Sequence record: NC_048799.1
DNA length: 52,329 nt
Source: Escherichia phage Mangalitsa
Direction: 5' to 3' (one strand)
Shown here in pieces: positions 211-12,784 of this stretch. The number at the start of each line of letters is the position of its first letter. The first letter of the stretch is position 1. Made by a program: the position numbers and the translations under genes. The notes below the pieces were generated by a model, which was given only the letters and a program-made list of their open reading frames with translations, made no database searches and was not told the origin of the DNA.

Positions 211-2325
211 ATGACTAACGAAGAATACCGTGCACTGGCTGCTGATGGCGCTCGCTTGAAAGAAGAAGGCCAAGGTTGGAAAGACGTGCTCGATACGATG
301 GACCGTTGCAACCAGATGGTAGATGAAATCACCTCCGCTACACAATCCGAAACTAAAACCGAAACTAAATTGGAGACTCGCAAAATGACAACTATCTCAA
401 CTCAAACTATCAAATCCGTTGTCCCTGCTATCACTGCCCTGGTATACCGTGCTAAAGAGAAACAGAATTACATGCAGCCTCAGACCTGTGCTATTGCTGC
501 TCTTGCAATCTTTAAGATGATGACCTCATTCACTCGTGATGATGTTGTTCCTGCAATGTCAATGGTTGAACTGGCTTCTGCTTCTATTGCTGATGCCAAC
601 CGTTACAACAACGACCTGAAAGCAATGCACTATGTTGACCCGGCTATCAACCTCATTGGTCTGGCTAAACACTTTGGCTTCATCACCATGAACGAAGACA
701 AGTCGTTCCAACAAACTGATGCATGGGTTGAGCTGGTTACTACCAAAGATACCTCAGTTCCATTTACTGAGCGTGTTACCACTGAATCTCGTCGCAAGCC
801 TTTCGTTAAAGGTGGCAAAGTTAAGCCATCCAAGACTCTGAAAGCTGCAATCGAATTCCTGCAAGATACTGAGTACCATGTGGAGACTGAGATGGTTCGC
901 GTCATCCAGTCTATGATTGAACAACGTACCTACGGTGGTTTGCAGGTGCCAGAAGCAATCCAGACTGAACTCCATGTTTGGAACAATGCTGTAGCAATGA
1001 TGACTCAGGACACTCTGTTCTCTGACTACTTTGCTGATAACCGTGGTCGTCTGTATCATGTAGCATGTGCTGGTCCTAACCCACAATCATCTGACTTTGC
1101 TCGTTGCTTGTATTCTCACAATGTTGAGAACATCGTTAAGAAGTTTAACGAAGATGGTTCTACTACCATTGCATACAACATGTTCATGGCAGAGCTGGAA
1201 GATATTTCCGGTGGTGAATGGTGTACTGCTAAGCGTTTAACTTATGTTGCTCAGAATCCAGCTGGTTCACTTGCTCGCATGATGAACATGGACAAATCTG
1301 AACGTCCTTCTAAGCCATTCACTTATGTTCGATTGGCTCTGGATTGGTTCAAGTTTGAGACTACAGGTGAGTGTGATTCTCGAGTAGGCTTTGGCTTAGA
1401 TGCTAAATGTTCTGGTACTCAATATCTGGCATTCATTGCTGGTAACATGGAGATGGCTCGTGCAACAGGTCTGGTTGATTCTGAGACTAAAGCATCTGAC
1501 CCATACCAGTTGAGTCTCCGTGAACTGTTGAAGCTACTGGATAAGTCTTCAATGAAACCATCTCCTGAAATTATGGATGAATTCTTGAATCCGAAAGCTG
1601 GTCGTAAGTTTATCAAAACTCCATACATGGCTATCCAATATGGTGGTGGTAAAGCTGCGTTAACTGGTTCTTCTGACTTTATCTCCTACATGACTGCATC
1701 TCTACAGATTCCAGTTGAGAAAGCAGAAGCATTTGCTGAACTGTGTGTGGAAGCAATCCATAACGCATTGGGTGCTAAGATTAACATGTTCATTGAGAAA
1801 GCTGCTGAAGCTGCATATAACCGTTGTGTTGAACTCAACAAAGAGTACATCACCTATAAGCACACTGATGGCCAAGTTGTAATGAAGCCTTGCTTCCCAT
1901 CTCGTGAAATCTGTGATGCATTCAGCATTCGTGTTGATTCTCAAACTCGTGTTATCTTTGGTCAGATTCAGGAAGAGAAACCTTGGACCATTCGTGAGTC
2001 CAATCCAACTAAGGAAGAATTCAAACGTACCTTCGTTGTTAACTACATTCAAGGTATTGATGCTCTGGTTGCTCGTACTGTTGCAGTTAAGGCTAAAGAA
2101 GCTGGTCTTCGTGGCTTTACTCCAATCCATGATTGTTTCCGTTGCTGTTTGGCTGATGCTCCACGCATGATGGAAGTTATTCGTGCAGCATATGTTGAAA
2201 TCTTTGTAACCAACAATCAATTCGAGAATCTGTCTAAGCAACTTGGTGGCATCAAGATGTATCACGAGAACATCGTAACCGAAGAGCTTCTGATGAGCGA
2301 ACACGCTTACTACTTCTGTCAATAA
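211..2325 (+). CDS. single-subunit DNA-dependent RNA polymerase, T7-like but compact (704 aa)
   Basis: Palm motifs readable in the translation: motif A DAKCSGTQYLA, motif B KFIKTPYMAIQYGGG, motif C IHDCF; RBS GGAGA before the ATG. Confidence 0.85.
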   Translation: MTNEEYRALAADGARLKEEGQGWKDVLDTMDRCNQMVDEITSATQSETKTETKLETRKMTTISTQTIKSVVPAITALVYRAKEKQNYMQPQTCAIAALAIFKMMTSFTRDDVVPAMSMVELASASIADANRYNNDLKAMHYVDPAINLIGLAKHFGFITMNEDKSFQQTDAWVELVTTKDTSVPFTERVTTESRRKPFVKGGKVKPSKTLKAAIEFLQDTEYHVETEMVRVIQSMIEQRTYGGLQVPEAIQTELHVWNNAVAMMTQDTLFSDYFADNRGRLYHVACAGPNPQSSDFARCLYSHNVENIVKKFNEDGSTTIAYNMFMAELEDISGGEWCTAKRLTYVAQNPAGSLARMMNMDKSERPSKPFTYVRLALDWFKFETTGECDSRVGFGLDAKCSGTQYLAFIAGNMEMARATGLVDSETKASDPYQLSLRELLKLLDKSSMKPSPEIMDEFLNPKAGRKFIKTPYMAIQYGGGKAALTGSSDFISYMTASLQIPVEKAEAFAELCVEAIHNALGAKINMFIEKAAEAAYNRCVELNKEYITYKHTDGQVVMKPCFPSREICDAFSIRVDSQTRVIFGQIQEEKPWTIRESNPTKEEFKRTFVVNYIQGIDALVARTVAVKAKEAGLRGFTPIHDCFRCCLADAPRMMEVIRAAYVEIFVTNNQFENLSKQLGGIKMYHENIVTEELLMSEHAYYFCQ

Positions 2326-3748: not shown

Positions 3749-3768
3749 CATTAGTTGCATGTGAATAA
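3749..3768 (+). promoter_or_regulatory. phage-RNAP-type promoter CATTAGTTGCATGTGAATAA, preceded by a partial copy at 3721..3734
   Basis: Identical to the 2621 copy; tandem partial motif TTAGTTGCAATTAA lies 28 nt upstream. Confidence 0.6.
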
Positions 3769-5154: not shown

Positions 5155-5451
5155 ATGTCAATTCAGAAATTCCTTGATGTAGCAAACGTTGCTAAGAATT
5201 CGATTCCAAGCAATCCCGATATTCTCACCTCAATGCGTGTTGATGTTGCAATTCTGGCTTTGGCTGGTGAGCACATCAATGTACTTGAGAAGCAAGTTTC
5301 AGATTGTAAAAGTGAAATAATCACTTTGCGTGACCAGGTTGCCAGCCAAGAAGCGGCATATTCTGACCTCATGGATGCGAAAAACCATTTGCAACAACGG
5401 CTTGCAGATGCACTTGAAGAAATCGAAAGGTTAACACCTCCAACCAAATAA
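5155..5451 (+). CDS. hypothetical protein, coiled-coil-like
   Basis: ORF; heptad-like charged sequence. Confidence 0.5.
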   Translation: MSIQKFLDVANVAKNSIPSNPDILTSMRVDVAILALAGEHINVLEKQVSDCKSEIITLRDQVASQEAAYSDLMDAKNHLQQRLADALEEIERLTPPTK

Positions 5452-5466
5452 CAATTGGGAGTTATT

Positions 5467-5730
5467 ATGGCTACTAAGACTGGAATGATGATTGTCCCAA
5501 GCCGTAATAACTCTTTAAGCGGCTTTACTCCATATAAAATCTATGAAGTAATTTCTGGCACTGGTGAAGCAAACCTGTCAGAAGTTGCTTTGAAGCTAGG
5601 TAGGATGGTCCACTCCGACATTTCCTGTAACGTAGTTGATGATGAAGGTAAAATCCGTTTTGTAACAATGGATTTCTTTCGTGAATTTAATCTTAAATCT
5701 GAAATCGGTGTTTTATATCATGAAATTTAA
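5467..5730 (+). CDS. hypothetical protein
   Basis: ORF-track frame 5455 begins at TTG; first ATG at 5467. Confidence 0.5.
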   Translation: MATKTGMMIVPSRNNSLSGFTPYKIYEVISGTGEANLSEVALKLGRMVHSDISCNVVDDEGKIRFVTMDFFREFNLKSEIGVLYHEI

Positions 5731-5947
5731 ATGTGTTGCTTCAACCAAAGATTATGTTCCAGTTGGCTTCATCGTTGAAGGTGAAGCTATCTCACCTTTG
5801 GAATTTAAAGTGACCAAATCGGCTGAGGATGTTTCTCCAGCATTTCGTAAAGGTGCTGTCGTTCCTATGAATGGTGTATTCTGGACATGGCAGCGTGACC
5901 ATGAAGCAGAATTTGCAGATATTTGTGAACAAGGGTTATTGCAATGA
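5720..5947 (+). CDS. hypothetical protein, tandem paralog A
   Basis: Starts MKFKCVASTKDY..., contains VFWTW; resembles the next gene. Confidence 0.5.
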   Translation: MKFKCVASTKDYVPVGFIVEGEAISPLEFKVTKSAEDVSPAFRKGAVVPMNGVFWTWQRDHEAEFADICEQGLLQ

Positions 5948-6174
5948 CAAAGTTTAAATGTGTGAAATCGACCTCTTCATCTGAGTATTCTCCGAAGGTT
6001 GGAGATATTATTGAGGGAGAGCTTGTAACTATTAAAGACGAGGATGGAGTGCAGACTCGCATAAACATCACAGAAGACAGTGACCGCAGAACTTCCTATG
6101 GCGCCCCATATTGGTCTGCGGGAGAGAGTGTTCCCTTGGAAGGCAGTGTCTGGACTTGGGAAGAAGTTAAATAA
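5944..6174 (+). CDS. hypothetical protein, tandem paralog B
   Basis: Starts MTKFKCVKSTSS..., contains SVWTW. Confidence 0.5.
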   Translation: MTKFKCVKSTSSSEYSPKVGDIIEGELVTIKDEDGVQTRINITEDSDRRTSYGAPYWSAGESVPLEGSVWTWEEVK

Positions 6175-6237
6175 TTTCCTCAACCGCTTTTGTAATGAGA
6201 GTGGTTGCTGAATATTATTAATTAACTTGGAGCATTT

Positions 6238-6525
6238 ATGAAACAGCGTACTCGTTTACAACGTGACCCAGCCACAGGCCGCTTGTTACCAGCATATTTG
6301 AAGGTTGGTGACTTAGTTTACACTCGTGACTTTGCTTTTGATATTTGCCCAAGCAAAGTTTATGTTGTTCTGGCTACCAGCTTGTCAAAACCTAAAGTGC
6401 TGTTTGGTGCACTTGAACCAATTCAATTAACCGGAACTCAATTTGTCATCAAAGATGAATCTGGTTGTAACCGAATCTTCAGTCTTGGAGGTGGACTATC
6501 TAAGTGGGAGAAAGTGAGGAAATGA
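6238..6525 (+). CDS. hypothetical protein
   Basis: ORF with GGAGCA RBS. Confidence 0.5.
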   Translation: MKQRTRLQRDPATGRLLPAYLKVGDLVYTRDFAFDICPSKVYVVLATSLSKPKVLFGALEPIQLTGTQFVIKDESGCNRIFSLGGGLSKWEKVRK

Positions 6526-6809
6526 ATAAGAATTCAATCGTTAAATATGTTGGTGAAACAAATTCCAGCTTCACCAAAGGCAAGAAGTACAAAATCGTCG
6601 CAGGTCGTGGTGACGGAGTTCCTCGAAACAGCGGTACATTAGGTGCGTATATTCAATCTCCTTTGGGTTTTGTCGTTATTGATGATAACAACGTTCTACT
6701 CTATCGTTCATTCACCAATTTGTGGGAGTTGGTGAAAGATTCTGGCGAAGTAAGTTGGTATAAACCTGAATCAAACATCGACCCGATTCCTATTTCAAAG
6801 GTGATGTAA
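6522..6809 (+). CDS. hypothetical protein
   Basis: ATG with GAGGAA RBS, ATGA overlap with upstream stop. Confidence 0.5.
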   Translation: MNKNSIVKYVGETNSSFTKGKKYKIVAGRGDGVPRNSGTLGAYIQSPLGFVVIDDNNVLLYRSFTNLWELVKDSGEVSWYKPESNIDPIPISKVM

Positions 6810-6850: not shown

Positions 6851-6870
6851 CATTAGTTGGATGTGAGAGA
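6851..6870 (+). promoter_or_regulatory. phage-RNAP-type promoter CATTAGTTGGATGTGAGAGA
   Basis: Motif family member, 70 nt upstream of the SSB-tail gene. Confidence 0.55.
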
Positions 6871-6938: not shown

Positions 6939-7313
6939 ATGGCACAATTTAACGATTTAAACACTGGTATTCTGGGTTCCAATGGCTTCAAGAAAGCTGA
7001 AAATCATCCAGACGTTCGTGGTCGCATTAACGTAGAAGGTATTTGGTATTGGGTGTCTGGCTGGAATAAGAAAGCTGGCAACACCGAATTTACCTCATTG
7101 GCACTCACCATCATGACTCAGGAACAGGTTGATGAAATGATGCGTAAGCGTGAAGAGAAGGCTAAAGCCAAAGCTCAACCTCAAGCTGCCGCTCAACAGC
7201 AACAGCCACGCCAGCAGCCAACTCAGCAACAGCAAGCTCCTGCTCAACAACAACAGCAGAGCAATTATAACCCGAACGAGCCGAAAGACTTCGACGACGA
7301 CATTCCATTCTAA
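6939..7313 (+). CDS. mini SSB-like protein: short N-domain, Gln/Pro-rich linker and a C-terminal tip identical to E. coli SSB (DFDDDIPF)
   Basis: C-terminus ...NPNEPKDFDDDIPF; low-complexity linker QPQAAAQQQQPRQQPTQQQQAPAQQQQQ; N-terminal 70 aa is too short for a canonical OB-fold SSB. Confidence 0.55.
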   Translation: MAQFNDLNTGILGSNGFKKAENHPDVRGRINVEGIWYWVSGWNKKAGNTEFTSLALTIMTQEQVDEMMRKREEKAKAKAQPQAAAQQQQPRQQPTQQQQAPAQQQQQSNYNPNEPKDFDDDIPF

Positions 7314-12764: not shown

Positions 12765-12784
12765 CATTAGTTGAATGTGAAAAG
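12765..12784 (+). promoter_or_regulatory. phage-RNAP-type promoter CATTAGTTGAATGTGAAAAG
   Basis: Motif family member upstream of the acidic protein gene. Confidence 0.55.

Follow-up and report, generated by a model that had tools for sequence, protein, structure and literature searches.

Two short adjacent genes in the genome of Escherichia phage Mangalitsa (NC_048799.1) encode proteins with common sequence motifs, which raises the question of whether the pair arose by local duplication, an event often seen in rapidly evolving host-interaction genes, as had been proposed in the initial annotation of this DNA. The whole stretch that was analysed, 52,329 nucleotides in length, is referred to below as the window, and the upstream and downstream genes of the pair as gene A and gene B. 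Both genes had already been deposited as hypothetical proteins and clustered in PHROGs, and the feature by itself is an ordinary part of the pre-replication region of a virulent phage. What is added here is that the two are overlapping homologues with one predicted fold, A being frozen throughout the genus and B a recombining cassette with discrete allele classes.

Genomic context and coding status

Both open reading frames described in the initial annotation were found on the plus strand at the positions and with the lengths it had given (Table 1), and the product of gene B has the same sequence as Mangalitsa_012 (YP_009850482.1) of phage Mangalitsa. The stop codon of gene A and the start codon of gene B overlap by 4 nt as ATGA, and the end of the preceding gp09-like gene overlaps the start of gene A by 11 nt, such that gp09, A and B form an overlapping run whose synteny is kept throughout 20 genus loci and also in L014, a distant contig. 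Purifying selection on both genes (dN/dS 0.14 for A and 0.20 for B across 18-20 related genomes) indicates that they are real coding genes. A longer, GTG-initiated reading frame for gene A (5681-5947) lacked support because the N-termini of family members align at M-x-K-F-x-C.

Table 1. Coordinates of the features of the A/B locus and its surroundings, as positions of the window
Feature	Position	Strand	Description
CATTAGTTGNATGTGA, other perfect copies	132-147; 2621-2636; 2877-2892; 12765-12780	+	
RNA polymerase gene	211-2325	+	First gene; T7-type, single-subunit
CATTAGTTGNATGTGA, nearest copy upstream of A and B	3749-3764	+	Putative start of transcription unit containing A and B
gp08-like gene	5155-5451		Coiled-coil protein, 98 aa
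gp09-like gene	5467-5730	+	Upstream gene, 87 aa; phrog_18131, a family other than that of A and B
Gene A	5720-5947	+	ORF, 75 aa, MKFKCVAST...FWTW...; orthologue of phiEcoM-GJ1 gp10; conserved paralogue
Gene B	5944-6174	+	ORF, 76 aa, MTKFKCVKST...VWTWEEVK; orthologue of phiEcoM-GJ1 gp11; variable paralogue
Hypervariable island in B	6020-6139	+	About codons 26-65; from per-site entropy and allele alignment
Hairpin	6181-6207	+	11-bp stem, 5-nt loop; spacer between B and next gene
gp12-like gene	6238-6525		
gp14-like gene	6522-6809		95 aa
CATTAGTTGNATGTGA, next copy	6851-6866	+	Ahead of SSB gene; downstream limit of block
SSB gene	6939-7313		Directly after CATTAGTTGNATGTGA copy

Mangalitsa is a member of the genus Carltongylesvirus in the family Chaseviridae, and the region is 80-95% identical at the nucleotide level, in a mosaic pattern, to phiEcoM-GJ1, flopper and ST32. 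The RNA polymerase gene at the start of the window is followed by primase-helicase, DNA polymerase and terminase genes, all on the plus strand, and the block of small genes to which A and B belong has the phage RNA polymerase gene on one side of it and the SSB and replication genes on the other. The label 'early' that has been attached to the pair is putative and derives solely from this position. A scan for loci with protein A returned five, including the window itself and one metagenomic locus. Escherichia virus TH53 (MT446419.1, locus L007) differs in sequence here, matching the window in blocks of 81-95% identity and with an offset of 73 nt at gene A. The record PP952070.1 (locus L022), named 'Staphylococcus phage Pel53' with Staphylococcus hyicus as its stated host, is a Carltongylesvirus approximately 87% identical across the region, and its host label looks doubtful.

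A 16-mer, CATTAGTTGNATGTGA, is present in six perfect copies, all on the plus strand (Table 1); when up to three mismatches were permitted there were 13 matches against 2.67 expected, a number that none of 100 shuffles reached. The copies precede genes at the sites checked and match 'putative phage promoter' features annotated in phiEcoM-GJ1, making the 16-mer a candidate for the promoter used by the phage RNA polymerase. The ICTV family profile reports that chasevirus promoters have not yet been identified (PMC12842549), and the assignment therefore stays putative. The SSB encoded directly after the downstream copy has a long Gln/Pro/Ala-rich linker and an acidic tail, DFDDDIPF, typical of bacterial-type SSBs.

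Homology and predicted fold of A and B

The three motifs claimed as common to the pair, KFKCV-x-ST, the EGE core and (V/F)WTW, are all present in both proteins, and the paralogy deduced from them was borne out by each of the comparisons made. Pairwise alignment showed a similarity well beyond chance (34% identity over 71 columns, BLASTP E 6e-10), and in a phmmer search covering every window ORF of 40 aa or more, 381 in all, each protein was the sole significant match of the other (E approximately 1e-6; next best 0.2-1.5). Both match the same PHROG, phrog_18786, over nearly its whole length of 68 positions, protein A at E 2.4e-31 (profile positions 2-68) and protein B at E 7.6e-23 (positions 1-66), and both match the N-terminal 60 or so positions of phrog_24403.

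Structure prediction with AlphaFold2 gave the same five strands in the same order for both proteins. Protein B modelled alone forms a five-strand all-beta domain (pLDDT 93.6, pTM 0.79); protein A, modelled within a joint A+B chain, has the strand order of B plus a short C-terminal helix, at a domain pLDDT of approximately 85. The strands predicted for A span residues 2-8, 18-25, 28-31, 47-49 and 55-60 and the helix residues 62-68, a layout of one predicted beta-barrel domain (residues 1-60) followed by a short helical C-terminal tail. Superposition of the BFVD models available for family members gave TM values of 0.69-0.81. Genes A and B are homologous, anciently diverged members of one small beta-barrel domain family.

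Members, signature and distribution of the family

The family domain (PHROG 18786/24403) comprises approximately 60-65 aa, predicted to form a five-stranded beta-barrel, and carries the signature M-x-K-F-x-C...G...G...P-x-x-G-x-[LVI]-W-x-W-E. Across a 49-sequence alignment, in the numbering of protein B, every sequence has C6, G67 and W72, and conservation is 90% or higher at K3, G20, P64 and W70; the full set of K3, F4, C6, G20, P64, G67, W70 and W72 is complete in both window proteins. A profile search among 1.84 billion representative proteins recovered 50 clusters at E<=1e-3, two of which (P0064 and P0076) probably match spuriously, in sequence that lies outside the barrel domain. The named members belong to Chaseviridae (Carltongylesvirus and Erwinia phage Faunus), to Gamaleyavirus (N4-like Schitoviridae) and to Veterinaerplatzvirus (Drexlerviridae), with further members on contigs of phage size (46-72 kb, one of 151 kb), and every genomic context examined for the family was a phage or a phage-sized contig. 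These contexts are arrays of small genes, one of them directly after an RNA polymerase gene and with a weak ArdA match nearby. Some members carry extra C-terminal parts, in the form of a helical extension, a DUF7279 module or a Cys-rich tail. In Faunus (MH191398.1, locus L004, 2447-2653) the member is an unannotated 68-aa protein encoded between the genes for AWN08591.1 and AWN08592.1.

The phrog_18786 and phrog_24403 entries, which include phiEcoM-GJ1 gp10 and gp11 and Mangalitsa_012, catalogue these proteins without an assigned function, and all deposited names of members that were looked up are 'hypothetical' or 'uncharacterized'. The annotations seen record no paralogy, no contrast between a conserved and a variable gene, no fusions and no fold, and no functional study of these genes emerged from a search of the literature on phiEcoM-GJ1 and Carltongylesvirus. 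The family proteins had no Pfam, NCBIfam, PADLOC or PDB-sequence match.

The neighbouring small genes were compared with the family as possible hidden members, which was rejected as unproven on the hhalign results: only the last 16 residues of the gp12-like proteins align (probability 21%, E 0.0011), and the gp09/gp14 group gave no match. The gp12-like protein of the window ends in GGLSKWEKV, resembling the C-terminal G-x-VW-x-WEEV strand of the family. The gp09-like and gp14-like proteins, whose genes flank the block, resemble another paralogue pair of weaker similarity (BLASTP E 8e-5 over 42 residues); they are collinear, with 13 invariant columns across 9 sequences, and the gp14-like protein matches phrog_18131, the entry of gp09, at E 0.0016.

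Age of the split between A and B

A recent tandem duplication would fit the adjacency and overlap of the two genes, a copy number of two to three within the genus, and third copies that group loosely with the B alleles and are flanked by duplicated spacer. However, the longest stretch of DNA common to A and B is 14 nt, and their 34% amino acid identity lies below the identity of each to homologues in other genera or families. Outside its orthologues, the nearest relatives of A are P0049 (60%), the second domain of the fused proteins of another chasevirus-like contig (47%) and the Faunus protein (36-40%), and outside its own alleles the nearest relatives of B are Gamaleyavirus proteins (ST4, 47-52%). 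Gene A is absent from the eleven closest relatives of B, and B from those of A. The two genes thus display neither of the marks of recent tandem duplicates, namely mutual closest relatedness and retained DNA similarity.

Neighbour-joining trees were built with 200 bootstraps from an alignment of only 67 columns, and a clade of A plus B was recovered in 0 of the 200. Bootstrap support was 100% for the A orthologues, 72% for an A-type clade including Faunus and 85% for the B alleles. The B alleles group with the third copies at 49% support, and on this grouping the third copy would be a cassette of the B type that was gained later. It follows from the bootstrap trees that the split between A and B is older than the genus, or that the pair was assembled by acquiring a second family member. 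A is the conserved lineage and has A-type relatives in other chasevirus-like phages. As an account of the A/B pair, a recent local duplication with both copies diverging fast is largely refuted and is considered very improbable, gene A also being nearly invariant (dN 0.04, omega 0.14).

Contrasting evolution of A and B within the genus

Across 18 genus genomes, gene A is 87-99% identical to the window at the amino acid level and forms one class at 80% identity, whereas gene B is 58-96% identical, falls into at least six allele classes at the same threshold and encodes proteins of 68 or 76 aa. The earlier characterization of the pair as rapidly evolving consequently holds for B and fails for A, and does not extend to positive selection for either gene. 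By pairwise Nei-Gojobori comparison, in which dS is saturated between B allele classes, gene A gave a dN of 0.041 and a dS of 0.29 (omega 0.14), gene B a dN of 0.267 and a dS of 1.32 (omega 0.20), and the flanking gp09-like and gp12-like genes a dN of 0.043-0.048 and a dS of 0.46-0.49 (omega about 0.1), which places A among the most conserved genes of the block. Within the B allele classes pN/pS was 0.24-0.47. Positive selection was rejected, since dN/dS by this method was below 1 both overall and within allele classes, and the combination of a high dN with a high dS at an omega of 0.20 points to old B allele classes shuffled by recombination rather than to accelerated adaptive change.

The variation in B is concentrated in an island (Table 1) made up of the long loop before beta4 and the beta2-beta3 hairpin, in which there are charge reversals and an indel of 8 residues. 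Over the island the mean pairwise nucleotide identity falls to 0.41-0.64, compared with 0.85-0.99 over gene A and 0.94-0.99 over the downstream spacer. The first ~25 and last ~10 codons of B are conserved, as are its terminal strands. Net charge is not conserved (pI 4-10). Despite the overlap of the genes, nucleotide distances in A show no correlation with those in B (Spearman 0.07, p 0.41), EcoM1 for example having 99% identity in A and 61% in B and TH37 89% and 88%, and this uncoupling argues for recombination. Discrete B allele classes are common to unrelated genomes. The sharp confinement of the divergence within one gene would also be compatible with targeted hypermutation of the diversity-generating retroelement type, but the window holds no second, template copy of the variable region of B, no reverse transcriptase was identified among the ORFs that were scanned, and the 8-codon indel, the saturated synonymous change and the discrete allele classes constitute a recombination pattern, so that hypermutation is effectively refuted and given next to no credence.

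The gp08-like coiled-coil protein encoded upstream is as divergent as B (dN 0.27, dS 1.09) and was detectable in 11 of the 20 loci; its weak PHROG matches to Rz-like spanins probably reflect coiled-coil composition.

Copy number, fusions and a cassette slot at B

A comparison of copy number among relatives, one of the checks put forward with the initial annotation, showed that it varies. Gene A with one B is found in 17 of 20 genus loci, and the genus as a whole has mostly two genes and in some cases three domains, with one copy in most other phage groups. Escherichia phage FXie-2024a has three genes, the third flanked on both sides by a duplicated unit of approximately 60 bp that consists of the last codons (GAAGAAGTTAAATAA) and the hairpin spacer. 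In a metagenomic relative, gene A precedes a 147-aa protein in which two B-type domains are joined in frame (P0027), a fusion seen on contigs from three independent assemblies. P0032 and P0034 consist of a domain not of the A type fused to an A-type domain, an arrangement encoded on a more distant chasevirus-like contig. In the unverified record of TH25 the start of gene B is missing. Gene B sits in a cassette slot at which cassettes have been gained, fused or lost, and local cassette gain, although discounted for the origin of the A/B pair, does occur there.

The hairpin that follows B (Table 1) has a folding energy of -14.9 kcal/mol (z -2.8) and is 94-99% conserved, and in its copies around the third gene of FXie-2024a the stem changes keep pairing. 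The equivalent site in SA91KD is annotated as a rho-independent terminator, and the hairpin is probably a terminator or an RNA-stability element.

An additional gene of 60-63 aa with a CxxC...CxxC zinc-ribbon motif is present between the gp09-like gene and gene A in FXie-2024a, ST32, EcoM1, SA91KD and BSBP01 (L002 2221-2403; L010 1592-1774; L017 1092-1274; L018 1089-1271) and absent from the window and from phiEcoM-GJ1. Its product was compared with the Cys-rich C-terminus of P0054 and no relationship was evident (BLASTP E 0.10).

The fusions raise a further possibility, that A and B form a hetero-oligomer in which A is the constant subunit and B an exchangeable specificity subunit, the fused proteins (P0032, P0034 and P0027) being covalent versions of it. 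Under the Rosetta stone principle, fusion of two proteins in some genomes often points to an interaction between their separate counterparts in others; the overlap of the genes would fit coupled synthesis, and the contrast between a constant and a variable partner fits as well. On the other hand, an AlphaFold2 model of A and B joined by a 20-residue linker reached a pTM of 0.42; each domain folded well (pLDDT approximately 85) but there was no confident relative placement of the two, in what is a weak test, the model being a single-chain workaround based on a shallow paired alignment of 21 rows, and the single copy in most other phage groups implies that the family domain can function alone. 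A hetero-oligomer of this kind is viewed as unlikely.

Possible function

The proposal favoured here, held with slightly better than even confidence and based on sequences and models, is that A and B may be small, non-enzymatic binding proteins made before replication, with the target of A invariant and that of B polymorphic. Along the terminal strands, the invariant residues F4, C6, G20, P64, G67, W70 and W72 alternate in the manner expected of core positions, and they may form the core of the barrel. No catalytic, enzymatic or nucleic-acid-binding signature was found in A or B, and the suggestion of a binding protein draws on this result together with the alternating invariant residues, the restriction of variation to one hairpin and one loop, and the unconserved charge. 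A fixed scaffold with variable loops would serve binding; the partner of A would be invariant, whereas that of B would differ between host strains, as a variable host or defence protein does. A polymorphic target of this kind would keep several B alleles in circulation. A direct arms-race signature is lacking, dN/dS being below 1 everywhere it was measured, and PADLOC gave no match to defence systems.

A competing role is that of nucleic-acid-binding or RNA-polymerase-binding factors, built like the small barrels of the KOW, Sm or Tudor type and acting in the transcription or replication of the phage itself. Such a role would suit the location of the genes between those for the RNA polymerase and the SSB, the basic tails, DUF7279 module or Cys-rich C-terminus of some homologues, and a weak NCBIfam match, far below the cut-off (E 0.0076), between B and Csl4, an RNA-binding protein of the exosome. 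Neither the Pfam KOW profile nor the KOW sequence motif of NusG-Spt5-type domains was found in the proteins, and a factor of this sort is regarded as quite improbable.

A more specific extension of the binding-protein proposal, in which A and B would constitute a constant and a variable module, B being a scaffold with at least six interchangeable specificity cassettes under frequency-dependent selection against a polymorphic host target, is speculative and on balance doubtful. If it is true, the B allele would help decide which E. coli strains support the growth of Carltongylesvirus phages after adsorption. The contrast with A makes gene B a good candidate in the search for post-adsorption host-range determinants of these phages, several of which are under consideration as therapeutic agents against pathogenic E. 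coli and Yersinia, and the variable loops of the confidently modelled 65-residue scaffold could be studied as a natural library of binding surfaces. Should B have no effect on host range, the finding would amount to a routine annotation note.

Comparison with known systems

Among the nearest known systems considered are the SH3-like small beta-barrels, including SH3, KOW, the PhnA C-terminal domain and eL27-type domains. Another is found in virulent phages, which undergo mosaic cassette exchange at conserved intergenic stem-loops, as exemplified by the promoter-early stem-loops of T4-type phages. The B locus resembles this system in having a variable gene between conserved flanks that include a conserved hairpin, in the extra cassette bounded by a duplicated flank, and in the uncoupling of the B allele from the neighbouring gene. 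It differs from the T4-type exchange in that the conserved flanks include the first and last codons of B itself, such that exchange at this site, known here from sequences alone, would swap the middle of the protein while retaining its scaffold.
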